Source: a virus
Taxonomy: Duplodnaviria > Heunggongvirae > Uroviricota > Caudoviricetes
IMG/VR virus record: IMGVR_UViG_3300044814_000107
Location: 3,224 to 67,223 of that record
DNA length: 64,000 bases
Direction: 5' to 3' (one strand)
Shown: in pieces, positions 3,159 to 55,979 of the stretch
Layout of the letters: every line of letters begins with the position of its first letter
How positions within the stretch are numbered: position 1 is the stretch's first letter
Translations under genes and position numbers: made by a program
The notes under the pieces: generated by a model
What the model saw: the letters and a program-made list of their open reading frames with translations, nothing else
What the model was told of the DNA's origin: nothing
Database searches by the model: none

Positions 3159-3243
3159 CGCTTTACCTCCTGGTTATGCCGGCGTTCCGGCTGATTTCCA
3201 ACGAGTCCGACCGACCCGTCAGCGAAAAGCGCGAGGGCGTTCA

Positions 3244-16900: not shown

Positions 16901-18307
16901 TCACATAGCGGTCGTAGCCGAACATTCTGCGCTCGGACTCAGCTCGCCCCGCGACCATGTTGGGAGTGACGCCGGGGGGCCATACGTCAGGACGCACCGG
17001 CAAGCGCAGACCTCTCCCGGATCGCCGTCCGGGTCGCCGGGGAACTGGAGCTGGTCCTCGCCGACCTGGAAGGTTCCGTCAAGCTCGACCGTCTGGCCGT
17101 CGAGGCCGGCGTAGAGCTCGTGGCGGGGGTATTTCGCGCCCGGCGCTGTCCGCCACGTCTTCGAGTAGTTCTGGCCGGTCGCGCCGGCGACGAGCTGCGT
17201 CGCGGCGAGCGAGCCACCATTTGCGGCGCCCGCCAACTCTGTACGCGCAATCAGCGTCGCCCTGGTCGCGGACGCGGCCTTCATCCCGGCGCGGATCGCG
17301 GTCGCTGTCTGCGGGATCGTGAGGCCGTTCTGATAGGCGGACTGGATGATCCGCATGACGTTGAGCTGCGTCGTCTCCGCGATGCTCGTGATCTGGCTGG
17401 CGCTCTGCGCCAAGACCCTCGCGGTCAGCGGGTTCGTCACGTCCCACGAGAGGCCCGCCTGCTCGAGCGCCGGCGTCATCGTCTGCTCGATCATCGCCTT
17501 GCGGACGGGCTCGGTCTTCTGCAGGAGATCGGCGACGAGCTGGTCGACGTCGATGACCTCGTCGGGGAACGGTGCCGACCACGTCGGCGGCTCGCCGGCA
17601 GCGGTCAGCGACGGCACGCCCACGAGCGGGACAACGACCTCCTCGCTATCGCCGCGCACGACGTGGATCGCGTCGAAGTGGAGCGGCTTCCCCGCGGCGC
17701 GCTCGATCGCCGCGTCCCGCTCCTCGGTCGAGGGGTCGGAGTGGACGGTGATATGAGCGGCGAATCCGTGCTGCCTGCCGTAGTCGATCCGCGCCTCGAG
17801 CAGCGCCTCGGTGACGGCGACGCGGAGCTCGACGAGGCCGCGCACGTCGGGGAGCAGGATCCCGACGCCGGGGAAGAGGCCGTAGCCGCCGACGACGCCG
17901 GTCAGCGGGGCGAGCGAGGCGGCGACCGGCCGTAGCGCGTCCGCGATCTCCTCGAGCGGCTGCTCCGTCTGGCCGAGATAGGCGAGCGTCACGTGAAGAC
18001 GCGCCGGCGGATCTCCGTCGGGATCGGCGATCGCCTCAGCCTCGTCGAAGCGGGGCCGCAGGCAGACCATCGTCGCGGTCGCCGAGACGTTCTCGTTCCC
18101 AGCCGCGGCGGTCAGGTGGTTCGTCGCCTTCTGCTCGAAACGGTGCGCGGCGCGCGCACCGGCGCGCGCGAGGATCGGGACTAGAACCCTCGCGAGTCTC
18201 CCCTCGAGAGCGTCTACGCGCTCCTGCGCCGCCGCCAGGACATCGTTGTGCTGTGCGGGGGTCACCCGTACGGCCTTCCTCCGAGCTGTCGACGCAGCCC
18301 TAGCCAC
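16901..18307 (-). CDS. MuF-like head morphogenesis protein with an N-terminal 2H-phosphoesterase-like domain
   Basis: AAGGAG precedes the GTG start. The C-terminus matches the Phage_Mu_F domain (ARTELAGAANGG...YSKTWRTAPGAKYPRHELYAGLDGQTVELDGTFQV). The N-terminus has the paired HxT motifs of a 2H phosphoesterase (LHVTLAYLG and AAHITVH). Confidence 0.75.
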   Translation of the reverse strand: MARAASTARRKAVRVTPAQHNDVLAAAQERVDALEGRLARVLVPILARAGARAAHRFEQKATNHLTAAAGNENVSATATMVCLRPRFDEAEAIADPDGDPPARLHVTLAYLGQTEQPLEEIADALRPVAASLAPLTGVVGGYGLFPGVGILLPDVRGLVELRVAVTEALLEARIDYGRQHGFAAHITVHSDPSTEERDAAIERAAGKPLHFDAIHVVRGDSEEVVVPLVGVPSLTAAGEPPTWSAPFPDEVIDVDQLVADLLQKTEPVRKAMIEQTMTPALEQAGLSWDVTNPLTARVLAQSASQITSIAETTQLNVMRIIQSAYQNGLTIPQTATAIRAGMKAASATRATLIARTELAGAANGGSLAATQLVAGATGQNYSKTWRTAPGAKYPRHELYAGLDGQTVELDGTFQVGEDQLQFPGDPDGDPGEVCACRCVLTYGPPASLPTWSRGELSPSAECSATTAM

Positions 18308-18314
18308 GGCTCGA

Positions 18315-21300
18315 CTACTCCTTGCGGGCGAGGACGCCGGAGACGTAGGTGGCGAACTGCGGAGGCAGCGGAGCCGGTGACTCGTCGTAGAGCGTCCGGG
18401 CCGCGTGACGCTCGACCTGCTCGAGCAGAACGGCTACCTGATCCGCGCGGAGGTTCCAGCTCGAAAGCGTCTCCTCGAGGACCCCGCGCGCGCCCGCGAT
18501 CAGCTCGCGCTCCGACGTTCCGAGTGCCCGCGTCCTCTCCGGCCCCAGCCGCGCGGCGACAATCTGGTTAGGTACGCCGTCGATCAGCTTCTCGCTGTCC
18601 CTGTCGCGCTTGGCGAGGGAGCGGAGTCGACTTCCCGCGAGCTCGCGGCAGCGCCGAAGCGCCAGGTCGGCCGCGCCGACGACCCTCGCCGCCTCGAGCG
18701 CCGACCCGACGACGCTCGAGATCGGTTCCTCGGCCGCGCTCTTCCCCGCGGGCGGTCCGGGCTCGACCTCGGCCCCGACTGCAGGCCCTTGCGACGCGCC
18801 CTCGGTGCCAGTCGCGGAGACGATCTCGCCGCCCTGCGGTTCGATGCCTCCCGACTTGATGGACGGGATGCCGTAGAGCGCGAGGCTGCCGTCGCGGACG
18901 GCGACGCCGATCATCTCGTTCAGCTCGTCGTCTGAGGGCGCGTCCACGTCGTCGAACCCCTTCGCCTTCCGCAAGGCTGCCTTCCCGATCGCGCGCGACT
19001 GGTAGGCGTCGAGCGCGTCCTTGCCGCGATCCGGATGGTTCACGACGTCGGTCGCGTCGTACTTGATCGCGAACTCCGCCCAGTCCTCCCGGCCGCTCGC
19101 GCGCATCTCGGGGCCGAAGTAGGAGGCGGTCAGGTCGTTCACGAGCTGGTTCGACGCCGGCTGGCCGTGAGCCTTCCACGTCTGGTCGTCGACGAGCCAT
19201 CCCGTGTTCCCGGTGAAGAAGACCTTGCCGTTGCGGCGCGCGAACCATGTGTGGTTCGGCGTGACTGGGCACCAGACGATCCCGTCGTAGAAGACGATCC
19301 GGTCGGTCGCGCCGTCAATCCCCTCCCGACGCGCGTGCTCCGCGGCCTTCACCGGCCGGACGCTCTTGGTCTCTAGCCCGTGAACTACGACTCCTCCACC
19401 GCTCTCGTGACGAGAAACGGCGCAACCCGCGAGGATGCACGCCAACTCGAAGGCGTCGAGTCCGTCGCCGTCCTTCTGCCAGATGTCGATGCGGCCCTGC
19501 GAGTAGTGCCAGCCGTCAGCCGCGCAGGAGACGGCGACGAAGATTTGGAGCTGTTCAAAGGTCAGCGCGCGGATGAAGTCGAGCGAGACGCGCTTCTTCG
19601 GCGCGACCACAAACAGATCCTTTGCGGCGTACTGGTTCAGTCGGAAGACGGTGATCGCGCCGCCGTGGCTCGACTCGTTCGACTGCTCGGCCTCGCGCCA
19701 GGCGGGCGCGGACGAGCCGCGCAGCGTGTCGCTGGCGGGGCCGTAGAGACGGCCGAGCAATTCGCGGATCTGCACGACCCGTTCTGGGTTCCTCGTGTGC
19801 GACTGAGAGATGGTCACGTTGCCGCCGATGCTCCCTTCCGTCCAGAACCAGGCGACCAGCCGCACGAAGTCGGACGAGTACGTCGCCTCCTCGGGCGCAG
19901 CGTGCGGCGCGGCGGTGATGATCGAGTGCTTCGCGGCCAGCTCAGCCGAGGTCGTCCACTCTCGGACAAACGGGATTCCTTCGCGCACCGCCCGCGACCG
20001 AGCTTGTGAACGCGCCGCCATGTCAAGAAGCCACGCCTCCTCCTCGGTTAGCTCTCCTCCGACCGTCACGACTATCGGATCGACGACTGCGTTCTCGTCG
20101 ATCGAGCCCGGACATAGGACGGGCCAGCGATGCGGAAGCGTCGTCAGCGAGGAGTGCGTCCGGCTCCGCAATTCGCGCATCGGCTCTCTCTGCGCCTCGG
20201 CGCGATAGATGTCCTGCACGGGCTGCCACTCCGACGCGCCAGTCTCATGGTTCAGCGTCAGAACCTCATCGCCCACGTCGAACTCGTTGTAGTGCCGCCA
20301 ACCCCCAGCCGTCAGGATCTCCGTCTCCTCGTCAACGCACCAGTGATTCGCGTCGGTCATCCCGAGCAGGATCTCGGGAGGCATATCGACTCCGAGCGCG
20401 ATCCGCTTCACGCACTCGTAGCGGAGGCCAGTCTCGGGGTAGAGCTGCGTCGGGTCGATGACCTGGATATGCCGGATCCCTCTCTCCACGGCTTCCGTCG
20501 AGCCGCGAATGACGAGCGGGACGATCTGCGACGCTGCGCCCTCGTTCGCGATCGGGGCCATCATCGCGTTCTTCAGGTCGCGCAGGAACGGGTCCTCCTC
20601 GATGTCCTCGCCGGGTGTGGCCTCGAGCGGCGCGTGCGAGAAGTCCTCCGAGATCGCGAGGATGCCGCTGCCGGCGAGCCGCGACCGGCCGCGCGCCCGG
20701 ACGGCGCGTGTCAGGATCAGTAGCTCCTCGCAGAGGTCGAGGACGCCCTTCATCGGCGAGTCGGCGAGCATCGAGTAGCGCGGGTGGCGGCGCCAGAGCC
20801 GGTAGACGACCGCTTGGTCACCAAGCGGCTCGAAGTCCTCGTCCGCAGCCTCGTAGAGCTGCTCGGCGGCCATCGACGGTGCCCTGTACCGCGTGTAGAT
20901 GCCGGACTGGACGCGAAGCTCGTCGGTCGAGAGCATCTCCCACTGCTCTTGGCCCGTATCGGGATCGGTCGAGCAGAGGAGGTACGTCTCGCCGGCGATG
21001 AACATGAGTCGGCCGTACGAGCTCAGCAGGCCCTCGCGACCGCCACCCGGATCTTGGATCCGCTCGAGTGCGGCGACCGCGTCTGGATCGTCGGTCTCCT
21101 CCCACTCGCCCTTCGCGTTCTTCTTCGCCGGGTAGAGCCGCAGGAGAGACATCATCCGCGCGTAGAACTGCGAGGCGTACCAGATTTCGCCGATCTGGTC
21201 GTAGTAGGAGAACGAGCGCGCCTGCCACGGCTGGATCAGCCGCCGCATCTGGTCGCTGTCTTGGTGGGTGACGCGGAAGCCGGCCGCAGTCAGCCCCTCG

Positions 21301-25218: not shown

Positions 25219-25382
25219 TCGTCCCAGGAGAGATTCGTCGCGATCAGCGCCTTGAGACGCAGGTCGCCTCCGAACTCGGACGGGCCGAGATCGCTGGTCG
25301 CGAACAGCGCGGCTTCGATGTCGTCGTGGACATCCTCGAGCGTCTTCCCCTGCGGGGTCACCTGCTGCTCGTCGTCACCCAT
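25140..25382 (-). CDS. hypothetical small protein
   Basis: Track ORF 25140..25613, trimmed to MGDDEQQ, which is preceded by GGGAGG. Confidence 0.4.
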   Translation of the reverse strand: MGDDEQQVTPQGKTLEDVHDDIEAALFATSDLGPSEFGGDLRLKALIATNLSWDEWWRIGRPVHGLASKPDGWEGRPWRI

Positions 25383-26995
25383 CGCGTGCCTCCCTTCAGC
25401 CCGCCCCTTACCGGGGCGGGGTCGTAGATCAGCTCGGCGTCGGCCGCGGGGTCGCGGCGGACGAAGTGCTCGTGGTAGCTCGCGCGGATCGCCTCCTCGG
25501 GCGCGCCGTCGTAGACGCGCCAGCCGGCGCCATACATCGCGGGGAGGTTCGTCGCGGCGTAGGCAGCGCGGCCGTTCGTGATCTTCCGACAGTTCTTCGA
25601 GGCATACCCCCACGCGACGTAGTTCCCGGTAGCCGTGGTGAGACTGATGACTTCGCTTTCGCCGTCCTCTTCAACCGCAACAATCTTGTCTGGGTGGCCG
25701 ATCGTACCGCCGATCCCGCGACTGGCGAGCATTTGGTCTGCCCACGTGCTTCGCTTCTTCGGCCGGACGAGATTGGCGAATCTGACAAAGGTTTCGCGGC
25801 CACCGACTAGATGGACACCCATTTCCGCCTTGCGGTACGGGAAGCCGAAGTGGTCGAGCGCTTCGCACAGCTCCTCGTAGAGGAAAGGGTTGGCGGCCGC
25901 GCTCTGTGCGATGTGGTTTCGGTGGCCCTCGCCGTCGAACATCCCCGCGAGCCAGCCGGCTAGCCAAGCATCATCGTAGTCAGGCGACGGGAACGACGGA
26001 GTTATGACGTGGGTTAGCGACCGGCCAATGGCCGCCGTCTTGAACACTCCGCTTCCCCGTACATAGGTAGCGTCGCCAACAATGACCTCGTTTCCCTGCC
26101 CCCATCTTCCTATCCCCTGCCCCCGGCCTTGCTCTCCGCCGACAGCGATGGGGAAGCGATCCGGCCCGCGAGTACCGTAGAAGTGCTGCCGCCAAAGGTG
26201 ATCAGGCGAGCAGCGAAGACTTCGGCCGGACTCAAACTCCACACGAACGATTGGCGACTGTCGTACCGAGACGTCCGTTACAGCGGATGGCAGTAGATGG
26301 ATCTTCGTTCGCGCAGAGGAGTGTCCCCAGCCGATCACCTCGTCACCCACTCGGACATCGCCTAGATGGCGAAAAGTGAGATCGCCCATCCAGATCGGTG
26401 CCTCTGGCGGATTACAGAACTGCGCCTCGGAGCGCCACGAGAAGTGCCGGACGTTCAGGGGCGCGTCGATCGTCAGCGTGCCGCCGGTCGTCTGGGCTCC
26501 GTGGTTTCCCATCTCGATCGAGAGGTCGGGCCTCAGTCGGCACGCGACCTTCACCATCCCGTGTTTCTTCTGCCGCCAGCAGAGCTGCGCGACAGGATTC
26601 GCCGCCGGCTCGTCGACATCGGTCGCGAAGTGGTTGAAGACGAGAGCGCGCAGGATTCCGACGTCGGGGCCGAGACCGCCGAGGTAGTCGCGGATCGGCA
26701 GGTCGCAGTCGCCGTGGTGCCAGATTTCGTCGGCGTCGCAGGGCAGCACCCAGCGGTGGCCGCGCGCGAGGGCCTCCATCGCGAGCGCGGTCGTCTTCCT
26801 GTCCTGGTAGTAGCCGATCTCGGGATCGTCGCGCAGTTCGACCGGCAGCCGCTCGAGGATCTCGCGCGTCCCGTCGCTCGAGAGGTTGTCGGCGACGATG
26901 ACCTCGTCGACGTGCCAGAGCAGGTGCCGAATCGTCGTCTCGACAATATCCGCCTCGTCTTTGACGAGCATGACCGCGCAGACCGTGCCGCTCAT
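25358..26995 (-). CDS. GT2-family glycosyltransferase interrupted by an intein (545-aa precursor)
   Basis: The flanking (extein) regions carry GT-A motifs: MLVKDEADIVETTI, VADNLSSDGT and a DxD motif (PCDADEIW). The insert runs from CNPPEAPIWM to SLTTATGNYVAWGYASKN and is followed by Cys. It contains block B (RCSPDHLW) and a LAGLIDADG motif (WLAGWLAGMFDGEGH). Confidence 0.8.
   Translation of the reverse strand: MSGTVCAVMLVKDEADIVETTIRHLLWHVDEVIVADNLSSDGTREILERLPVELRDDPEIGYYQDRKTTALAMEALARGHRWVLPCDADEIWHHGDCDLPIRDYLGGLGPDVGILRALVFNHFATDVDEPAANPVAQLCWRQKKHGMVKVACRLRPDLSIEMGNHGAQTTGGTLTIDAPLNVRHFSWRSEAQFCNPPEAPIWMGDLTFRHLGDVRVGDEVIGWGHSSARTKIHLLPSAVTDVSVRQSPIVRVEFESGRSLRCSPDHLWRQHFYGTRGPDRFPIAVGGEQGRGQGIGRWGQGNEVIVGDATYVRGSGVFKTAAIGRSLTHVITPSFPSPDYDDAWLAGWLAGMFDGEGHRNHIAQSAAANPFLYEELCEALDHFGFPYRKAEMGVHLVGGRETFVRFANLVRPKKRSTWADQMLASRGIGGTIGHPDKIVAVEEDGESEVISLTTATGNYVAWGYASKNCRKITNGRAAYAATNLPAMYGAGWRVYDGAPEEAIRASYHEHFVRRDPAADAELIYDPAPVRGGLKGGTRWVTTSSR
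25592..26416 (-). mobile_element. intein (~275 aa) with a LAGLIDADG homing endonuclease, in a glycosyltransferase gene
   Basis: Positions were derived from aa 194-468 of the precursor. The penultimate residue is Lys rather than the usual His, and the +1 extein residue is Cys. Confidence 0.65.
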
Positions 26996-36411: not shown

Positions 36412-37926
36412 TCAGGAACGAACGCCACGACGCGGCATACGGCGCGGATCCCACAGACGCCGGCGCTCCTCGAACAGCGCCCCGTCCTCCTGGATCGTCG
36501 CTTGCCCGATCCGGTAGGTCTCGTCGTCGTCTGCCTTCGACCAAGCGGGATGGAGATGCTCGACGATCGCGTCGTGCGCGTGCGCGTAGGTGCCACGTAT
36601 CTGAGCCGTCTGGACAAACTCGTCGTCGCAGTTGCGGCTTGCATATCCGTGAGCGATGTAGTTGCCGCTACTCGTCGTCATAGAAACAACCTCACCCTCA
36701 CCGTCAGGGTGGACGGAGACGATCCGGTCGCGACGACCGAATCTGCGCGCCCCGATCTTCTCGCCTCGCAGACGCGACCTGCCACGCGCTCGCCATCCGA
36801 CGATCAACTCCTCTAGTTTGGCCCGCTTCGTTGGCTCCACCCGGAGCAGAAAGTCGAGGTATCCCTGACGACCCCCTTGCAGGTTGAAATAGGTCATCCC
36901 GTGGTGCTGTTGCTGTGAGTACCGCTTCTCCGTTACAGGGATCTCGAGCATCTCGCACACGTGTCGTACGCGATCAACGATCTCTTCGTTCCGAAGGTGG
37001 CTCTGTGCGGCAACAATTAGACCCGATCCTTCGCCATCGTAGATACCAGCGAGCCAGCCGGCCTCACGCTCTAGGCCAGCAGGGATCGGCTTCGGCTCGT
37101 CGGCCACGTGTAGCAGCAGCGCACCAGGGTGAGGAGTCACCCACTGTCGATCCGGCTGTTTATCTAGGAGTGCAGGAGTCCACCACGCATTCAGCCAACG
37201 GTGATCGGGTGTGCAGCGAAACTCGCGCCCCGATTCCATGACCACCCGCACGAGCTCGGCATGACGTCTCTGCACGCTGAGGACATCCGCGAAGCAAAGA
37301 CTCCTCCTCGGAGATCCGACAGTCGGTCGCGCTGCTGCGTTGTATTCCCACCCGATTACTCGATCGCCTACCTCGATCTCCCCGAGAGGCGTAAAGGAGC
37401 AGTCGGCCATCCAGATAGGTGCCTCGGGCGGGTTGCAGTACCAATGCCCATACACCTCCGGGAGGATCCGGGTCGGGTCGTCGATGACGCCGCCGCAGGC
37501 GAGGTAGTCGCGATGCACGAGCGGGTGCGTCGAGTGGACGCCCGAGAGGACGCGCCGGTTCCCGAGGTCGTTCGTGCCGACGACGCAGGCGCCGAACGGG
37601 TGCCGGGAGGCGGCTCGTAGGCACGCCTCGAACCAGCCGTCGTGGAAGAGGAGGTCGGAGGCGGCGAGCAGGATCCAGTCCTCGCTCATCAGATCGTAGG
37701 CGCGGTTGTGCTTCCGAGCCCAGTCCGCGCGACACGGCTGCTCCCACGGGACGACGACAACTTCTTCGCCGGTCGATCGGCACGCCTCGATCGTCTCGTC
37801 GTCGCCGGGCGAACAGGAGAACAGGATCCGCGCGTGGGGAGCTGTCGCTCGAGCTGAACGCGCGGTCTCGACGCAGCGCTCGGGCCGGCCGAGAGTCGGA
37901 ATCGAGATAAGCAGCGACGGCGTCAT
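36412..37926 (-). CDS. glycosyltransferase-like protein interrupted by an intein (504-aa precursor)
   Basis: The N-extein carries GT-A-like motifs (ISIPTLGRPERC and ILFSCSPGDDET). The insert begins CNPPEAPIWM and ends GNYIAHGYASRN, followed by Cys. It contains block B (RCTPDHRW) and a LAGLIDADG motif (WLAGIYDGEGSG). This is a paralog of the intein in 25358..26995. Confidence 0.75.
   Translation of the reverse strand: MTPSLLISIPTLGRPERCVETARSARATAPHARILFSCSPGDDETIEACRSTGEEVVVVPWEQPCRADWARKHNRAYDLMSEDWILLAASDLLFHDGWFEACLRAASRHPFGACVVGTNDLGNRRVLSGVHSTHPLVHRDYLACGGVIDDPTRILPEVYGHWYCNPPEAPIWMADCSFTPLGEIEVGDRVIGWEYNAAARPTVGSPRRSLCFADVLSVQRRHAELVRVVMESGREFRCTPDHRWLNAWWTPALLDKQPDRQWVTPHPGALLLHVADEPKPIPAGLEREAGWLAGIYDGEGSGLIVAAQSHLRNEEIVDRVRHVCEMLEIPVTEKRYSQQQHHGMTYFNLQGGRQGYLDFLLRVEPTKRAKLEELIVGWRARGRSRLRGEKIGARRFGRRDRIVSVHPDGEGEVVSMTTSSGNYIAHGYASRNCDDEFVQTAQIRGTYAHAHDAIVEHLHPAWSKADDDETYRIGQATIQEDGALFEERRRLWDPRRMPRRGVRS
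36631..37437 (-). mobile_element. intein (~269 aa) with a LAGLIDADG homing endonuclease, in the second glycosyltransferase gene
   Basis: Positions were derived from aa 164-432 of the precursor. Its N-terminal and C-terminal blocks are identical to those of the intein at 25592..26416. Confidence 0.6.
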
Positions 37927-40601: not shown

Positions 40602-42226
40602 TCAGATCCTTTCGGCGATGAAGTCGCTCAGGATGTTCGGAGTCGCGGTGTCCATGCCAACCACGTCCATCATCCCCGCGTCGTTCGGGTCGGCGATCGA
40701 GAAGCCGTTCGAGACCATCCCGACGACAGCGCAGCGCGCGTCGATCTGCGACGAACGCCGGTACTGGTCGAGGGCCTGCTTCGGATGGATCGAGCCGGCC
40801 CACGTCTCGCTGTCGGTCAGGACGACGAACGAGTCGAAGTCCTTCCCCTGCTGCTGCGCGTAGAGCATCGGGAGCGCGCAGTCCGTCCCGCCGAACGGCA
40901 GGCCCGTGACCGTCCGTACGGCGTCGTCGAGCCGCTGCCGCGACGAGAGGCCGAGCGGCGTCAGAGCGGTATCGCCGCCGAACGTCGAGTAGCGGCCGGT
41001 CTTCGACGTGAAGCCGACGACCTCGCAGTCCTTCTCCTTCGCGAGCGTGACGAGCGCGAGCGCGGCCGACGCGCCGCGGGGCGTCAGCGGCGAACCGGCG
41101 ACGTTCCCCGAGGCCATCGACCCGGAGACGTCGAGCGCGAGCAGGATCCGCTTCCCCGTCGCCTCGACGTTGTCGAACGCGAGGTAGAACGCCGCGTCGA
41201 GCGCGTCGATGACGACCGGCAGCGGAGTCCACGTGTTCGTACTCCGCATCCCGTGGCCGACCCCGTACGTCGCGAGCGCGACGAGCAGCGCCAGCGGATG
41301 CAGGCGCGACTTCCGGATCCGCTCGCCGTCGGCGAGCTGCTCGACGACGAGCTTCCGGTAGTCGCCCTCGAGGACCCCGAGGCGCGTCATGTTCGCGAGG
41401 TTCCGCGTCAGCGCGTGGATCGGCATCCCCCCGTCGAGGAGCGCGCGCCAGACCTCCGGATCGGTCAGGTGCTCCGTCTTCAGCGCCTCACGCGGAAGGA
41501 CGTATTCGCGGCAGAGCGACGCGGTCTGCGCCGGCGTCTCGGCCCGCTGTGCCCGCTCGAAGCCGTTCACGATGAGCGTGTTGTCCGAGAGCGGCGTCTT
41601 CTCCGACCCGCCGACGATCCAGGCGAAGAGCTGGTCGAGCTCGGAGCCGCGCTCGGGCGTCGGCTTCGCGAGGCGGAGCAGGTCGCGGTGCGACCAGCCG
41701 TCGCGCTGCCGGTACTTCACGGCGTCGTACGCGAGCGAGGAGACGCCCTTCGTCTCGTACCAGTTCCGGATCGCCCACTTCGCCGTCCGGCCCCAGCCGC
41801 GCTGCGTCTCGAGGTACGTCGCGAAGTGGTACAGGTGCGTCCCGATGCGCGCGACGAGCGGCAGCGCCTCGGCGGCCGCCTTCTTCGTCGCCTTGTCGCC
41901 GGCCGAGATCGCGACGGCCAGCGCGAAGAGCGCCGGGTCGTTCGAGGGTGCGCGACCGGCCTGCGATACCTGGACGATCTCGGCAACGAGGCGCTCGCCG
42001 TCCTGCTGCGCGAGCTCGCGGAGCGCGCCGACGTTCTCGCGGGTCAGGTCACGCTCGGTCGCGTAGTACGACCCGCCCTCGGAGCCGAGGATCAGGAAGC
42101 GCCGGAGGCGCGTCCAGCCGTCGACGGCCCAGACGAACCCGCCGGCCGAGTTCTCGACCTGGCCGGGCTCCATCGGCTCGTCCTGCGGGGTCTGAAGGGT
42201 CGAACCGTGCTTCTCGAGGTAGCTCA
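40602..42226 (-). CDS. rsr: Ro60 ortholog (Rsr; TROVE domain plus vWA/MIDAS)
   Basis: Track ORF 40602..42668, trimmed to MSYLEKHG, which is preceded by GGAGA. The product has a TROVE region followed by a C-terminal vWA domain with a MIDAS motif (ILLALDVSGSMASG). Confidence 0.85.
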
Positions 42227-42379
42227 TCTCGGTCTCCAATCGGCAGAGGGAACGGGACGTCGCGGACGAGATGTGGGAGTCGGATCGGGCGAGCGTCACG
42301 CCCATGCTCCGTTGCGAGGTAACCGACCTAGCCCTCCGGTCCAGCGACAGCGGGGAGACTACCTGACGCAGCGGTCGTA

Positions 42380-43168
42380 GTCGAGGGGGCGAGTAACGCG
42401 ACGGTGTCGGACTCCTGCCAGCTTCAGCAGCCGGTGATAACCGACGGGGTGCCGCTCCGGCCCACCTCTTCTGTCTCTGCCGAGAGACGTCAGGGAGAGT
42501 ACCGCGCGGGCGAGGAACTGACGGCCGAGTCCATCCGATCCCGAGGGATCGTACGGCGGGAGTCGAACCCGCTTTACCAGATAACCGGCTACGTCTCCGG
42601 CCCAGCGCTCGAGCCAGCGTACCGCCCGCGCAGATCCCTCGTTCGAGGGATTCTCTCGATCTCGGCACGTTCCGATCTATCCGACATGGATACAGAAGAA
42701 GAGATCGAGATCATCCCGGGCCGCTGCGTCGTCTGCGACGGGCCGGCCGAGGAGGACGGCGGACTCCTGTTCTGCGAGTTCTGCCCCGCCGTCGACGACG
42801 AAGCGAGAGGTGGAAGGCTGAAGTTGCGCGGGCGAGGTGTCGAAATCGGGTTTAGCGCTCTTCCAGTTGAGCTACCGCCCGCCGAAGCGGAACGACCGGG
42901 GATCGAACCCGGATCTCTCCTTTAGCAGAGGTAACCGATTCCGTTCGGCCCAGCGCGACGCCCAGCCTAGCAGGGCTGTCTCGTCGGCGTCGCGCTTGAG
43001 CGAGGAAGGAGTGCAGTGCGCGGGCGAGATTATCGAGGACCGGGTTTTAGGCGTCCTGTGCCACTTAGACGACGTCGCCCGAAGGCTACGGCGGGAGTCG
43101 AACCCGCGTCTCCCCCTCCAGATGGGTAACCGGATCTCGGCCGGCCCAGCGCGACGCGGACTCTATCA
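42380..43168 (-). ncRNA. cluster of about four tRNA-like, Y RNA-like repeats upstream of rsr
   Basis: The minus strand carries repeated canonical T-arms (GCGGGTTCGACTCCCGC and CCGGGTTCGATCCCCGG). There is one acceptor-plus-D-arm module (GCGGGCGGTAGCTCAACTGGAAGAGCGC...CGCCCGC). Conserved GCGCTGGGCC and GGTTA(C/T)C blocks recur in each unit. The units do not fold as complete cloverleaves, because the anticodon arm is missing, which fits the tRNA-mimic domain described for bacterial and phage Y RNAs. Boundaries are not resolved. Confidence 0.5.
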
Positions 43169-43169
43169 G

Positions 43170-45395: not shown

Positions 45396-48002
45396 CTAGT
45401 AGTCGTGGACGCCGGCGCCCATCGGGACGATCCCCGGAATGTCGCCCTTCGCGACGAACGAGCCGTGCGGCGCCGTCGCTGGCTTCCACATCTTCAGCTC
45501 CCAGAACCCCCAGACGAGCGCGTCCATGCGGTTCGGAGACTCGTCCGCGGGCGTCCAGGTCGTCATCTCGTCCTCGAGCTCGGGGAAGGCGCCGACGTGC
45601 CGGATCGTCGCCTGCTTCTCGTGCTCCACGTCGGAGAAGTAGAGGGCCGAGATCGGCTCCGCCCTGGTGCGCTTCCCGCGGCTGGCCGTGACGAGCCTGA
45701 CGGGGACCGTCGAGTCGTACCCCTTGATCGTCAGCTCGACCATCTCGCCGCCGTTGTTCGACTCGGCGACGATCTTGTCCGCCTTCCAGTCGTGGAAGGC
45801 GTCGACGCTCGCGGCCGCCCACGCCTTCGGGCCACCCTTGATCTGCGTGCGGTCGTCGAGGACGTACCCGAGACCGTCTTCGCCGAGCCCGACGACGACG
45901 ATCCCGGCCGCGTCGGCCGACTCGCCTGACGTCGTGTTCGGGTCGACGCCGACCACGATCTTTCGCATCCGGTCGCCCCACTCGTCCCGCAGCGCCGCGA
46001 CCCGCTGCCAGCCACCCTGAACGACCGGCGCTTCGACGCGGATAGCGTCGATCGCCGCGCGCGTCCAGAGCGCCCCCTCGACGTCCTCGAGCAGTTCGGC
46101 CTCGATCTCCTGCCGGCCCGTCCGCGTCCCCTCAAGCGGCGCGACGACCTCCTGCCACCAAACGTCCGAGAGGTTCTCGCGGTTCTCGTACGACGAGCCG
46201 CGGACGAGGACGTACGCGGCTCGCGTCTTCGTCAGTTCGACCAGCTCGCGCGTCAGCCGGTTCGCCTTCGGCGTCGACGTCAGCACCGCCCGCGGATGCA
46301 CGCCGAGGCGCAGACCCAGCGTCATGTTCGACCACGTCGTGTCCATCTGCGACCCGACAGCCGCGCCCTTCGCCGCGTCCTTCCACGACGAGGTCTCCTC
46401 GCACCATGCGTAGTGGTGCTGCGGGCCTCGGAGCCGGTTAGGCTCCTCCGACCCGAACCCCTTGTAGATCGTCCCGTTCGCGAGGGTCAGCTCGAGCAGA
46501 GACTTGTTCCAGGCGACGCTGCGCGACCCGCCGAGCAGCTCCGAATCGGCGAAGACGGAGAGCAGGCCGGTCTCGCCCTCGAAACAGGTAGCGCGGACAT
46601 CGCCGAGCGTCGGCGCGATCACCGCGATCCGGCGCCGCGGAGCTTCGAGGCCGCGCGCCCTGGCCCACTGCGCCGCGCTGACCGTGTTGTGGGTCGGAAT
46701 CATCGCGTCCCCGGCGAGGTAGATCCGGTGAGGCGAGCCGACGGCGACGCAGTACATCGGCAGATCGACGCCTGTCGGCTCGATATTCACGATCATCCGG
46801 TGAAGCGACCGGAACGCCTGCCGCCCGAGCGGCCGACACCGATCGGCCTTGCGAGGGAGCCGGAAGACGGGCAGCGTCGGCCGCCACGTTACGCGATAGC
46901 GGCGCTTGCACTCGCGGCCGTTCAGGAAGGACGGACCGTCGGAGAGGGACGGCTTCTGGCCTAGCGACGTCGCGAGTTCCATCACAGCCTCCGCGAGCTG
47001 CGGGAGAGACGACGCGAACTCGACGTGCGAGGTCTGCGCGACAGCATGTCCGTCCGAATCCATGAGCCCCTGCAAGAGCGCGAGTCTCTGCGCGATAGAC
47101 CCGCGCAGGTACGCGGCCGGGACGTGCTTATTACCGAGCAGCCCCTCCTCCCTGAGAAGTCCGCGCAGACCGCGCGTACCGACGTCATTCGGATGCGAGA
47201 GTCGCCGGGGCGAGAACGCGGCAGCCTCCTTGAAGAACGACGTCTGGTCGTCCGGATGAATCGTTAGCTGCCCCGAGATCGTCGTCCCATCGCCGAGCCA
47301 GTAGCCGAGGACGTACGGGTCGATCGGCAGGTCAGCCTCGGGAAGGTCGAGCGGTGCCGCGACCGGGATCGAGTGGTTCAGGTCACCGCGGACGCCTCTC
47401 CGCAAATCGAACGCGAGCTGCGCGGTCGTACGAACGCGCGGCCCCGGACCGTCCTCGACCCTCTGCGGCTCCCTGTCGCGCCTCCACGCCCGCCGTACGC
47501 GCCACGCAGGCCAGTCATCCGGAAGCCGCGTCGAGTCCTCATAGGCCGACCGGAGATACGCCTTCCGCGCCGCCTTATCCCATGTCGTCCACTGGTGATC
47601 GGCGCAGGCGAGGATCGAGCTCCCGTCCGAGAACGTCAACCGATACGCCTCGACGATGCGACGCTCCGACTTCCAAGTAACGCGCGTCGGGCACCCCTGC
47701 TCGTCGAGCAGAAGATCGCCTACCCGCACGTCGCGCATCGTCACCCACCCGGACGGCGTCGGAAGCCGCGTCTCCTCGTGCAGGAGCTTCCCGAAGCCGC
47801 GGCCGGCCATCAGGTACCAGAACACCCAGTCGCCCGCAGGCGCGAGCTGCTTCGGCCTGGCGCGGTACCGCCAGTTCGTCAGGGCCCGACGGGATAGCTC
47901 GTCGGGAGAGATGTTCGACTTCGCAGCCTCGTCCGCGAGCCACGCGCGTCGCTGCTCCGGCGCGAACCCGGCGACCCGCTCGAGCAGGGACTCCTCGGTC
48001 AC
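45396..48002 (-). CDS. terminase large subunit with a P-loop intein (868-aa precursor)
   Basis: The Walker A motif AGRGFGK is split before its final Thr by an insert that runs from LLHEETRLPTPSG to MIPTHN. The insert contains block B (CADHQW) and a LAGLIDADG-like segment (LGYWLGDGTT). The C-extein has nuclease-like residues (VVGVDPNTTSGESADAAGIVVVG) typical of a terminase nuclease domain. Confidence 0.85.
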   Translation of the reverse strand: MTEESLLERVAGFAPEQRRAWLADEAAKSNISPDELSRRALTNWRYRARPKQLAPAGDWVFWYLMAGRGFGKLLHEETRLPTPSGWVTMRDVRVGDLLLDEQGCPTRVTWKSERRIVEAYRLTFSDGSSILACADHQWTTWDKAARKAYLRSAYEDSTRLPDDWPAWRVRRAWRRDREPQRVEDGPGPRVRTTAQLAFDLRRGVRGDLNHSIPVAAPLDLPEADLPIDPYVLGYWLGDGTTISGQLTIHPDDQTSFFKEAAAFSPRRLSHPNDVGTRGLRGLLREEGLLGNKHVPAAYLRGSIAQRLALLQGLMDSDGHAVAQTSHVEFASSLPQLAEAVMELATSLGQKPSLSDGPSFLNGRECKRRYRVTWRPTLPVFRLPRKADRCRPLGRQAFRSLHRMIVNIEPTGVDLPMYCVAVGSPHRIYLAGDAMIPTHNTVSAAQWARARGLEAPRRRIAVIAPTLGDVRATCFEGETGLLSVFADSELLGGSRSVAWNKSLLELTLANGTIYKGFGSEEPNRLRGPQHHYAWCEETSSWKDAAKGAAVGSQMDTTWSNMTLGLRLGVHPRAVLTSTPKANRLTRELVELTKTRAAYVLVRGSSYENRENLSDVWWQEVVAPLEGTRTGRQEIEAELLEDVEGALWTRAAIDAIRVEAPVVQGGWQRVAALRDEWGDRMRKIVVGVDPNTTSGESADAAGIVVVGLGEDGLGYVLDDRTQIKGGPKAWAAASVDAFHDWKADKIVAESNNGGEMVELTIKGYDSTVPVRLVTASRGKRTRAEPISALYFSDVEHEKQATIRHVGAFPELEDEMTTWTPADESPNRMDALVWGFWELKMWKPATAPHGSFVAKGDIPGIVPMGAGVHDY
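46686..47786 (-). mobile_element. class-3-like intein (~367 aa) with a LAGLIDADG domain, in the TerL P-loop
   Basis: It has a non-nucleophilic Leu at position 1, the WCT signature residues (Trp after the block B His, Cys in block F at MYCVAV, Thr in block G at PTHN), and Thr as the +1 residue. Confidence 0.6.
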
Positions 48003-54038: not shown

Positions 54039-55979
54039 TCAGAGAACCCCCGTCAGAGTCAGTCGGCCTAGCCACAACCCTACTTGCTCCGAGACCTGAA
54101 CCTGAACGGAGTTCCCGAGGATGCGGAGTTGAGCCGTCCGCGGGATGTCGACGTCGCTGACCCAGCCCGCGGGGAAGCCGAGCATCCACTCGACGAAGGC
54201 TGGGGCTAGTCGTCCCTGTTCGTCGGTAGGAGCGGGAGCTGGCCGTCCGAGGATTCGCTCCCATCGGTCGACGGCGGGTCCGTAGACGCCCCATTCGACG
54301 TTTCCTCGTTCACCGCGCTCGAGAGCGTCGGACCGCCCGTCCCGAACCTCTGCCCCTTGCTCCCCTTCTCCCCGTCGGAGCTCATCGGGGTCGGCAGCAG
54401 CTTCTTCGTCCTGCCCCGGTTCGGCCGGCCCATCGTGTCCGTCCCCGTCTCGTTTCTGCGGCTCTCGCCGTGCGTCAGCGCCGCCCGCAGTTCGCCTCCC
54501 GCGCCCGGGTTCTCCTCGTTCGCGACCGGCGTCGGCAACAGGGTCGGCTGCTCGCCCTCCTGCGTGAACGGCGTTTCGGAGATCGTCTCGCGCATCGAGA
54601 TCGCCGTCCCGAGCGGCAGAGTCGCCTTCTGGCCCGACGGTCGGCGTCCCGACTGCGACATCGCGCCCCTCTCCTGCCTGCCCCCGTCCCCGTCCGCAGC
54701 CTGCGGCGTCGGCAGCAGCCGCGGCGTCCTCGAGTCGCCTGTCTGGATCGCGTCCGTCAGGCTCACCCCCGAATGCGCCCTCGACCCCTCCAGATTCCGT
54801 GAGCCGCTCGCCTCCGAGTCCCCCGCCGTCGGCGTCGGAAGGAGTTTCCCGTCCACCTGCTGACGGCGAATCTCCGGTCCCAGTAGTCGACGGAACCCGT
54901 CCGGCCTCTCTCCGTCGCCGCCCGTCTGCGCCGTCGGGGTCGGTAGTAGTTTCCCCACGGCCGCGTCCGCCGCAATGAGGTTCAGCGGTGGCGAGTTCCT
55001 CTCCCGCTGCGACGGCCCCGCCGTGTTCTCGCCGTCCTGCGTCGTCGGCGTCGGCAGCAGCCGGTCTACCTCCCGAAGGCTCGGCCCCCCGTCCCTCGTC
55101 TCGCCGTCCGTCAGGCCCCGGCTGTCCGAGACGACCGGCGTCGGCAGCAGCCTTACCTCGGCCGCGATCGCGTCCGGCAGTTCGACCGATCGCTTCCCGC
55201 GCGTCCCCTCGTGCTCCCTCGACGCCGCCCGCTCCGGATCCGCCATCGAGTTCTCCGGCCTCCGACCCAGCCACGCGCCCGGCGTCGGCAGCAGATCCTC
55301 CTCGCCCTTCGGGAGGAGCGCCGGGACCGTCCTCGAGAGCGTCCGCTGCGTCATCCACTTCCGGCCCGGCAGCCACAGCCGGTGAAGCGGATCGTCCGGA
55401 TCCAGGTGCGTCCGGAACTCCTCGAGGAACTCCCCCGTCGGCGTCGACTCCTGCGCCGACGGGGTCGGCAGAAGGAAGTCGGGCGATGAGGAACCATCGG
55501 TCTCGGCCGTGAGGCGCTCCGACATCGGCAGCTCGCAGGCAGTCGTAGGCCCACCGATAGCCGAGCGCGGCCAGGTCGGCGCAGACCACTCCGAGAGCAG
55601 ATTCTCCTGCATCGAGGCGTAGGCCGGCCGCTGTTCGGATTCCGGGGACGTTCTCGAGGACGACGTAGCGGGGACGAAGCGCGCGAAGGGCGTCGGCGAC
55701 TCCGAACCAGACCTGGCCGTGGTCGCCCTCGATCCCGGCTCGGCGCCCGGCGAGGCTGTAGTCGGGGCAGGGGAACCCGGCGGCGAGGAGATCGACTCGC
55801 TCGACGGTGGACCAATCTCGAAAGAGGTCTCCATGATTCGGTACTCCAGGGTAGTGGGTTTCGAGGACGGTGGCCGCGGCCGGGTCGGGCTCCGCGAACC
55901 ACGCCCACTGGATGCCGAGCGCCTGCTCGAGGCCGAGGTCGAGACCACCGCCTCCCGAGCAGAGCGACCCGCCGATCAT
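54039..55979 (-). CDS. Dcm-like DNA cytosine-5 methyltransferase with an aberrant ~1-kb variable region
   Basis: Motif I (LCSGGGGLDLGL), motif IV (FPCPDYS), motif VI (ENVPG), motif VIII (HGRDRWFLIA), motif IX (FVEWMLGFP) and motif X (GNSVQVQ) are all in this frame. The intervening ~330 codons are low-complexity Gly/Arg/Asp/Ala-rich. In the +1 frame (track ORF 54206..55948) the same DNA encodes at least 10 LLPTP repeats. Confidence 0.55.
   Translation of the reverse strand: MIGGSLCSGGGGLDLGLEQALGIQWAWFAEPDPAAATVLETHYPGVPNHGDLFRDWSTVERVDLLAAGFPCPDYSLAGRRAGIEGDHGQVWFGVADALRALRPRYVVLENVPGIRTAAGLRLDAGESALGVVCADLAALGYRWAYDCLRAADVGAPHGRDRWFLIARLPSADPVGAGVDADGGVPRGVPDAPGSGRSASPAVAAGPEVDDAADALEDGPGAPPEGRGGSAADAGRVAGSEAGELDGGSGAGGVEGARGDAREAIGRTAGRDRGRGKAAADAGRLGQPGPDGRRDEGRGAEPSGGRPAAADADDAGRREHGGAVAAGEELATAEPHCGGRGRGETTTDPDGADGRRRREAGRVPSTTGTGDSPSAGGRETPSDADGGGLGGERLTESGGVEGAFGGEPDGRDPDRRLEDAAAAADAAGCGRGRGQAGEGRDVAVGTPTVGPEGDSAARDGDLDARDDLRNAVHAGGRAADPVADAGRERGEPGRGRRTAGGADARREPQKRDGDGHDGPAEPGQDEEAAADPDELRRGEGEQGAEVRDGRSDALERGERGNVEWGVYGPAVDRWERILGRPAPAPTDEQGRLAPAFVEWMLGFPAGWVSDVDIPRTAQLRILGNSVQVQVSEQVGLWLGRLTLTGVL

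Follow-up and report, generated by a model that had tools for sequence, protein, structure and literature searches.

The subject of this analysis is a stretch of 64,000 nucleotides of DNA (the window) from an uncultured virus of the Caudoviricetes, positions 3,224 to 67,223 of the IMG/VR record IMGVR_UViG_3300044814_000107, with a G+C content of 67.6%. Our interest is in its gene for the large terminase subunit, TerL, and in its portal gene, both of which are interrupted by long in-frame inserts. In TerL, the Walker A motif AGRGFGK occupies residues 66-72; then comes an insert of 367 amino acids (aa), residues 73-439, which begins LLHEE and ends IPTHN, and only then the threonine that completes the motif, Thr440. 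An earlier note on this DNA, made from the sequence alone, had described exactly this arrangement. We hold with high confidence that the TerL gene contains a full-length class 3 intein, a Hint splicing domain together with a LAGLIDADG endonuclease, at the site GRGFGK/T (here and below, a slash marks a splice junction), and that the portal gene contains an unrelated intein which most likely belongs to class 1.

The terminase gene and its intein

The C-terminal part of the TerL protein matches the Pfam family Terminase_6C (E = 1.8e-11), the protein matches PHROG families of large terminase subunits, and an identical protein is annotated as a terminase on a 92,052-bp JGI metagenome contig. When the insert is removed and the two exteins are joined, they align with the intein-less TerL of the Microcystis phage Mae-JY09 at 41% identity (E = 7e-97), and the alignment runs without a gap across the junction, where AGRGFGKTVSAAQW of the window faces AGRGWGKTRTGAEW of Mae-JY09. 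The insert is a disruption of an otherwise continuous terminase alignment. For this comparison we used a pairwise alignment of the joined exteins, because a MAFFT alignment of the full-length TerL with intein-less TerLs put the short N-exteins in the wrong place.

Alleles without the intein are common. All the TerL family counts given here come from the best 120 metagenomic homologues, in which the inserts were delimited automatically, and 15 of these homologues have no intein. Intein-less alleles are about 494 aa long and read GRGFGKT, and the closest are 73-76% identical to the TerL of the window. At the nucleotide level, the empty site of one such allele (P0003, from locus L009) lies around GGTCGCGGGTTCGGCAAG/ACGATCAGC, and 61 of 90 bases are identical to the joined site of the window. 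The window holds no second copy of either the TerL or the portal gene. A megablast search for close phage relatives, using the TerL gene and window positions 1-25000 against 50,697 phage records, matched only a tRNA, and a scan of the GTDB species genomes found no TerL relatives.

Two of the homologues have settings of their own. The intein-less TerL P0005 (76% identity; JGI sample 3300047160) is found on a 59-kb contig with ordinary bacterial genes around it, including a histidine kinase, an MIP channel and a pyruvate-ferredoxin oxidoreductase; nearby there are only a Dam methylase and small open reading frames (ORFs), and the context looks like a remnant or a small element, not a full prophage. 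The homologue P0004 (47% identity) has an intact P-loop and carries a class 3 intein, ALALDT..HHW..RCLTV..RTHN/T, at another position in TerL, EGE/TGLL. Class 3 inteins thus enter TerLs of this family at no fewer than two points.

As for the splicing residues, the first position of the intein is Leu73, with no Cys, Ser or Thr there, and the motifs ADHQW (His136, Trp138), MYCVAV (Cys418) and IPTHN (Thr437-His438-Asn439) are all where the earlier note had placed them. The insert ends in Asn439/Thr440, that is, a C-terminal Asn followed by a nucleophilic +1 residue. A phmmer search of PDB sequences returned three significant matches, with E-values of about 1e-18 to 1e-19, and all three are class 3 DnaB-1 inteins: those of M. 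smegmatis, 6BS8 and 6OWN (E = 1.9e-19), and that of M. chimaera, 6RIX (E = 4.6e-19). Aligned to 6BS8 residue for residue, HQW falls on HQW, MYCVAV on VRCVEV and IPTHN on VPTHN. Here the proposal that Trp in block B, Cys in block F and Thr in block G form the class 3 signature (the WCT triplet: Trp B:12, Cys F:4 and Thr G:5) is borne out, in that the three residues stand on those of solved and experimentally proven class 3 inteins.

The relatives of the intein tell the same story. At least 78 of the 120 homologues have an insert right after the Walker A Lys, and in two more the end of the insert was not located. His B:10, Trp B:12 and the terminal Asn are present in all 78 copies, Cys F:4 and Thr G:5 in 77 each, and the +1 residue is Thr in 71 copies and Ser in five. 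In the alignment of the TerL-intein family (A3), Cys F:4 is invariant. The first residue, on the other hand, may be almost anything: Leu (25 copies), Met (18), Ala (16), and in the other 19 copies eleven further types, namely Gly, Glu, Val, Asp, Gln, Arg, His, Phe and Lys, with Ser and Cys once each. Since Leu is the commonest first residue, Leu1 is the family norm and no oddity. A first residue that varies freely beside an invariant WCT triplet is the co-variation by which class 3 was originally defined (PMC2807308).

The predicted structure is that of an intein with an endonuclease. A model made with AlphaFold2 (AF2) from an alignment of 59 sequences has a mean predicted local distance difference test score (pLDDT) of 95.7 and a predicted template modelling score (pTM) of 0.93. 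The whole model resembles PI-SceI (Foldseek E = 6e-18, template modelling score (TM) 0.68), and its splicing lobe fits 6BS8 with a target-normalised TM of 0.84-0.86. Boundaries, conserved residues, fold, homology to proven class 3 inteins and empty alleles are in this case direct observations. Judged by its sequence, the insert has every feature by which a class 3 intein is recognised; because it has them all, the description "class-3-like" in the earlier note was right about the class and too cautious in its "-like".

How would such an intein splice? By analogy with its characterised relatives, we infer both the splicing of TerL, with its chemistry, and the activity of the endonuclease. An N-S acyl shift cannot take place at position 1, because the residue there is Leu. 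Cys418, activated by His136 and Thr437, would attack the Lys72-Leu73 peptide bond, with Trp138 packing behind the active site and shaping the pocket. The attack would produce a block-F branched thioester, from which the N-extein would move on to the hydroxyl of Thr440; cyclisation of Asn439 would release the intein, and an O-N shift would rebuild the P-loop as GRGFGKT. DNA packaging should depend on this reaction, because the ATPase site is split until it has taken place.

In the endonuclease, the two acidic positions, Asp238 and Asp317, are invariant among four aligned phage inteins. The predicted enzyme would cut TerL alleles that lack the intein, and repair would copy the intein-bearing allele into them, leaving a patchy distribution. 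The patchy occurrence of the intein among close alleles fits homing of this kind. Table 1 collects the coordinates of the terminase features and of the three further inteins.

Table 1. Interrupted genes of the window, their predicted inteins and the residues discussed in the text
Feature	Coordinates	Strand	Evidence or remarks
Terminase large subunit (TerL) precursor gene, intein inside	45396..48002	-	868 aa, Terminase_6-type; Pfam and PHROG
TerL N-extein, residues 1-72, ending in Walker A AGRGFGK (47787..47807)	47787..48002	-	Aligns to AGRGWGK of the intein-less Mae-JY09 TerL
Intein assigned to class 3, 367 aa, TerL residues 73-439: Hint domain split by LAGLIDADG homing endonuclease	46686..47786	-	PDB phmmer, AF2, Foldseek, family alignments
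Block B core CADHQW: Cys133 (B:7), His136 (B:10), Trp138 (B:12)	47589..47606	-	Aligns to HQW of 6BS8
LAGLIDADG homing-endonuclease domain, approximate limits	46887..47339	-	Pfam LAGLIDADG_3 E 3.9e-6; Foldseek PI-SceI, I-DmoI
Asp238 of LAGLIDADG motif 1 LGYWLGDG	47289..47291	-	
Asp317 of LAGLIDADG motif 2 LLQGLMDSDG	47052..47054	-	
Block F Cys418 (F:4), predicted initiating nucleophile	46749..46751	-	Aligns to catalytic Cys118 of Msm DnaB-1 (PMC6195587)
Block G Thr437-His438-Asn439 and Thr440 (+1, also the Walker A Thr)	46683..46694	-	
TerL C-extein, residues 440-868 and stop: remaining ATPase domain and RNaseH-like nuclease domain	45396..46685	-	
Portal protein precursor gene, 1016 aa	18315..21365	-	Joined exteins match phrog_776
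Predicted portal intein, 378 aa, residues 343-720, LAGLIDADG-like WFWTEGS and CAADGW	19206..20339	-	
Predicted third intein, 275 aa, Cys1...Lys-Asn/Cys, in family-2 glycosyltransferase gene 25358..26995	25592..26416	-	
Predicted fourth intein, 269 aa, Cys1...Arg-Asn/Cys, in second family-2 glycosyltransferase gene 36412..37926	36631..37437	-	

The portal intein, the glycosyltransferase inteins and neighbouring genes

The portal insert splits a conserved NHW/TGW motif and, like the insert in TerL, breaks an alignment that is otherwise continuous: the joined exteins match the portal family phrog_776 in one stretch, over positions 23-606 of 638 (E = 1.8e-89). Among the best 120 portal homologues, 106 lack the insert; these are about 640 aa long and read ...DANHW/TGW... 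(NHW, then Thr or Ser, any residue and Trp), and 13 others have an insert at the same point. The residues that matter for splicing are Cys343 (Cys1), Thr409-x-x-His412-x-Trp414 in block B, Cys699 (F:4), Thr718-Gly719-Asn720 and, at +1, Thr721. The AF2 model has a pLDDT of 85.8 and matches TliVMA, PhoVMA, PI-PfuI and PI-SceI (Foldseek E = 2e-13 to 1e-9). After block B there is an extra segment of about 34 residues which, in the family alignment, is absent from most relatives; AF2 has low confidence in it, with a pLDDT below 50 at residues 84-97 of the model. The G+C content at third codon positions (GC3) is 0.84 in the intein and 0.89-0.90 in the exteins, a narrower gap than in TerL.

The family to which this intein belongs is very large: it counts 4175 cluster representatives with E-values up to 1e-3, of which 606 have E-values up to 1e-30, and its copies occupy more than 100 different sequence contexts. 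We counted residues in 169 copies taken from the 150 best of the 4175 representatives. Cys1 is found in 166 of 166 full-length copies. The block B pattern T-x-x-H-x-W has Thr B:7 in 166 of 169 copies, His in 169 and Trp in 168; Cys is at F:4 in 167 of 168 copies, Thr at G:5 in 164 and Gly at G:6 in 164 of 168. At +1, 105 copies have Ser and 53 have Thr. The earlier note had reported an intein that starts with Cys and ends in Gly-Asn followed by Thr, which is what we find (CVDEE...FFTGN/T). It had also called that ending unusual, and this does not hold: with Gly at G:6 in 164 of 168 copies, Gly-Asn is the norm of the family.

Two typical class 1 features are missing, the penultimate His (G:6 is Gly) and Asp at F:4 (which is Cys). 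Functional inteins with either variant are on record (PMC5050341, PMC3196547); a penultimate Gly, in particular, is documented in mycobacteriophage inteins, where changing Gly to His slowed splicing (PMC5050341). We regard the portal intein as most likely class 1 on the evidence of its residues, in which case splicing would follow the standard route, starting at Cys343, and the penultimate Gly would be normal for it. We rank this reading first because Cys1 and the Thr of TxxH are strictly kept, the opposite of the TerL family, and because class 1 inteins with Cys at F:4 have been reported outside the monophyletic class 3 clade (PMC3196547). In three relatives at the same NHW/ site (P0145, P0146 and P0148) a Pro-Cys start replaces Cys, while TxxHxW, Cys F:4 and TGN/S are kept; either residue 1 is dispensable in these copies or the splice point is shifted by one residue.

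Immediately downstream of the portal gene lies a head-morphogenesis gene (MuF/SPP1 gp7-like; 16901..18307, - strand), and the N-terminal half of its protein matches RNA-ligase/2H-phosphoesterase-like PHROGs.

The remaining two inteins are both in glycosyltransferase genes. A six-frame scan of the window with the profiles of the TerL- and portal-intein families gave weak pointers to these two genes, in both of which Pfam covers only the N-terminal family-2 glycosyltransferase part. Each insert begins CNPPEAPIWM; one ends ASKN/C and the other ASRN/C, and each has one clear LAGLIDADG-like motif, LAGMFDGEG and LAGIYDGEG. The two inteins share 34% identity (E = 1e-42) and show only marginal similarity to those of TerL and portal, and their two host glycosyltransferases have no detectable similarity to each other. 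By tblastn, the third intein matches the portal inteins of cluster C1 mycobacteriophages (E about 1e-34), including one annotated as "intein-containing portal protein". From these sequence relationships, the window holds four predicted inteins of three lineages, in line with the count of four inteins and at least three lineages in the earlier note.

Some other genes of the window are worth recording. A C5 cytosine methyltransferase seems to be read in two frames, 54039..55979 and an overlapping ORF at 54206..55948, both on the - strand. One frame holds motifs I-VIII (residues 5-168, Pfam E = 1.5e-34) together with the C-terminal part, FVEWMLGFPAGW..LGNSV. For the roughly 1.2 kb in the middle, a GC3 typical of coding sequence (0.86-0.96) is seen only in a different frame, where ten "LLPTP" repeats are encoded. 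The Arthrobacter phage Lymara has the same split in gp76/gp77, an N-terminal ORF and an overlapping ORF with repeats and C-terminal motifs, and relative to Lymara the window would need one further frame change near 54210..54330. A sequencing error, a pseudogene or recoding could account for this. An orthologue of Ro60 (40602..42668, - strand) has TROVE and vWA domains (Pfam E = 9e-58 and 1.5e-38); such an orthologue also adjoins the TerL of the relative L010 and is present in the mycobacteriophage Catera. Just upstream of it in the window are two tRNA-Ser genes, at 43169 and 43912. No Y-RNA family reached its Rfam gathering score within the window.

Alternative readings of the inserts

A number of observations weigh against our interpretation of the TerL insert. 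The Hint and intein models of Pfam and NCBIfam, the kind of profile search that the earlier note had proposed for the inserts, gave only matches below threshold, and this for all four inteins; because of this, the identification rests on the PDB sequence search, the family alignments and the predicted folds. Just before Cys F:4 the window has Tyr, in a place taken by Arg in most relatives. At B:7 there is a Cys, where studied class 3 inteins have Asp or Ser. Near position 34 of the intein, a Cys that is at least 90% conserved in the family is a Thr in the window, which has a Cys two residues earlier. Finally, the GC3 of the intein (0.83) is lower than that of the exteins (0.92-0.93), which fits horizontal acquisition, but relaxed selection as well.

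The Cys at B:7 deserves a remark of its own. It is residue 61 of the intein (47604..47606, - strand; the first residue of CADHQW), and 58 of the 78 relatives have Cys there as well. Class 1 inteins have Thr at block B:7. The B:7 Cys could be a redox partner of the catalytic Cys F:4 (compare PMC6195587).

Could the TerL insert be a decayed intein that no longer splices, comparable to the class 3 pseudo-intein Arth_1007 of Arthrobacter FB24, in a dead terminase of a defective element? Inactive class 3 relics are documented (PMC3196547), the GC3 of the intein is somewhat under that of the exteins, and the closest intein-less allele examined, P0005, sits among bacterial chromosomal genes, so that this TerL lineage does occur in non-autonomous contexts. 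But His B:10 and Cys F:4, which Arth_1007 has lost, are present in the window, as are the Trp, the Thr, the Asn and the +1 Thr; the frame is open over 868 codons with a GC3 of 0.83-0.93; and the gene belongs to a complete-looking phage module of portal, head-morphogenesis and tail genes without any second TerL in the window. We consider decay very unlikely. Splicing that does not start with an attack by Cys F:4 we consider highly improbable. It would proceed either by a class 2-like route through Thr+1, or with Cys133 at B:7 as the nucleophile or a redox partner, and the prevalence of the B:7 Cys in the family, its place next to the N-terminal scissile bond in Hint folds and the redox control by a second Cys known in Msm DnaB-1 (PMC6195587) all speak for it. 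However, KlbA inteins are the only known examples of class 2, and they have Cys+1 and lack the WCT triplet (PMC4031507); B:7 is Gly or Asp in 18 of the 78 relatives, against 77 with Cys F:4; the B:7 residue is dispensable in MP-Be DnaB (PMC2807308); and close homologues are class 3 by experiment (PMC5222942). That the TerL and portal inserts are permanent domains, nuclease or DNA-binding modules kept in the mature proteins, is barely credible: with the Walker A Lys parted from its Thr by the insert, TerL could not bind ATP; both inserts have a predicted Hint fold and a C-terminal Asn followed by Thr; and most portal orthologues (106 of 120) have no insert, while such orthologues are common for TerL. 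The class 3 assignment of the TerL intein is the one that we keep.

For the portal intein, the question is whether it could itself be class 3, or work in a dual mode, with the triad Cys699 (F:4), Trp414 (B:12) and Thr718 (G:5), and with Cys1 dispensable. The W, C and T are invariant across the 13 copies at the portal site and present in 164-168 of about 168 copies of the wider family; Ser or Thr stands at +1, as it does in class 3; at the portal site, the inteins of three relatives start with Pro-Cys; and the WCT triplet has been found together with an N-terminal Ser or Cys (PMC2807308). Catera gp206, reported as class 3 (PMC3196547), has Ser1. In a profile alignment of the splicing blocks, the portal family matches the TerL family with HRW on HQW and Cys on Cys (probability 74%, E = 2.8e-5); for the whole TerL and portal inteins, the probability of the profile alignment is 15%. 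We still think a class 3 portal intein unlikely. The invariance of Cys1, together with a Thr at B:7 in all but a few copies, is a class 1 pattern which the TerL family does not share; a search of PDB sequences with the portal intein gave no match at E-values up to 10, and with it no significant direct similarity to proven class 3 inteins; and class 1 inteins with Cys F:4, as said above, are reported outside the class 3 clade (PMC3196547). Quite unlikely, too, is a mechanistic hybrid, in which splicing in the portal-type family could start from Cys1 or from the block-F Cys. If it were true, the Pro1 variants P0145, P0146 and P0148 would be copies that have already switched over, and block-F-initiated splicing would have arisen in this family a second time, independently and outside the monophyletic class 3 clade.

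The comparison of the two families also bears on how class 3 inteins are recognised. The signature proposed in the earlier note applies to TerL; as a sole criterion it fails, since Trp B:12, Cys F:4 and Thr G:5 are found in the portal intein too, and an intein should not be assigned to class 3 from its WCT triplet alone. A simple sequence test is whether residue 1 is free, as in the TerL family, or an invariant Cys, as in the portal family.

Comparison with known inteins

Among solved structures, the closest relatives of the TerL intein are the DnaB-1 mini-inteins of M. smegmatis and M. chimaera (6BS8, 6OWN, 6RIX and 6RIY). They share with it the P-loop GK/T site, a non-nucleophilic residue 1, the motifs HQW, xCVxV and PTHN, and about 50% identity over the N-terminal splicing lobe. 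The class 3 mechanism has been proven for them, by way of the block-F branched intermediate (PMC5222942, PMC6195587, PMC7664689), and they need Cys F:4 and Trp B:12 (PMC5222942). They differ from the TerL intein in having a helicase as host, no endonuclease, Ala1 where TerL has Leu1, and Asp at B:7 where TerL has Cys; and their redox partner Cys48 has no equivalent in the TerL intein.

Among phages, the closest relatives are WCT inteins in the P-loops of DnaB and TerL. The closest of all, with 40-43% identity along its full length, endonuclease included, is that of the Brevibacterium phage Rousseau (K/ALALD..HQW..RCIAV..IPTHN/T), at the P-loop K/T of DnaB. Rousseau and the prototype from mycobacteriophage Bethlehem differ from the window in having DnaB as extein and in their first residue (Rousseau has Ala, Bethlehem Pro; PMC2807308). 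Movement of inteins between P-loop proteins has been noted before (PMC2807308), and the likeness of the Rousseau and TerL inteins illustrates it. In TerL itself, the Gordonia phage APunk (cluster DE4) has the intein K/LVAHDTPVPTPSGW..HEW..RCVEV..TPTHN/S, already catalogued as class 3 (bioRxiv 10.1101/2025.01.02.630785). The APunk intein and its relatives in Ali17, Verity and Zipp agree with the window in the TerL host, the Walker A K/S or K/T site, Leu1, the WCT triplet and the LAGLIDADG endonuclease; the APunk intein differs in being only 34% identical, in its length (327 aa against 367 aa) and in its +1 Ser. The TerL of the Methanosarcina virus MetMV has the same Walker A site and signature, K/AQPL..HLW..QCIKI..ATHN/T.

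The portal intein has a same-site relative in the portal of the Gordonia phage Belphegor, which is of the same family, lies at the same NHW/ site, ends in FFTGN/S and is 45% identical; the window copy differs in its extra segment of about 34 residues after block B. Elsewhere, this family occurs in the portals of Hail2Pitt and Woes, at another site, and in GMA3-type TerLs. By description, the portal intein can also be likened to the mycobacteriophage RDF intein, in which a penultimate Gly supports fast splicing (PMC5050341). The glycosyltransferase inteins are related to the portal inteins of cluster C1 mycobacteriophages such as JayJay, at 31-33% identity (E about 1e-34); the C1 inteins sit in portal proteins, those of the window in two dissimilar family-2 glycosyltransferases. 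A 2025 survey of actinobacteriophage inteins lists 19 host protein types, and its text does not mention glycosyltransferase (bioRxiv 10.1101/2025.01.02.630785).

Both proteins of the packaging vertex, TerL and portal, would have to splice before packaging can begin, and we may have here a natural system in which to ask a general question. Do inteins time or gate the assembly of virions?

The analysis lends no support to the novelty implied in the earlier note. Class 3 inteins in TerL P-loops have been noted since 2009 (PMC2807308). Mycobacteriophages were surveyed in 2016, and the classic K/T site in the TerL P-loop, class 3 inteins of TerL, inteins of the portal and variation in the penultimate residue were all described then (PMC5050341). 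In actinobacteriophages, 287 class 3 inteins are now catalogued, mostly in TerL and Cas4 (bioRxiv 10.1101/2025.01.02.630785). Catera gp206, whose start at Ser1 and WCT triplet we checked directly in its sequence, is reported as class 3 (PMC3196547). Both packaging-gene inteins of the window belong to families already documented in actinobacteriophages, and for that reason the finding is correct but ordinary. Its importance is mainly one of cataloguing: it adds a full-length class 3 intein and its metagenomic family, with the copies counted above in the TerL P-loop, to a class already known to favour the P-loops of phage and helicase ATPases.

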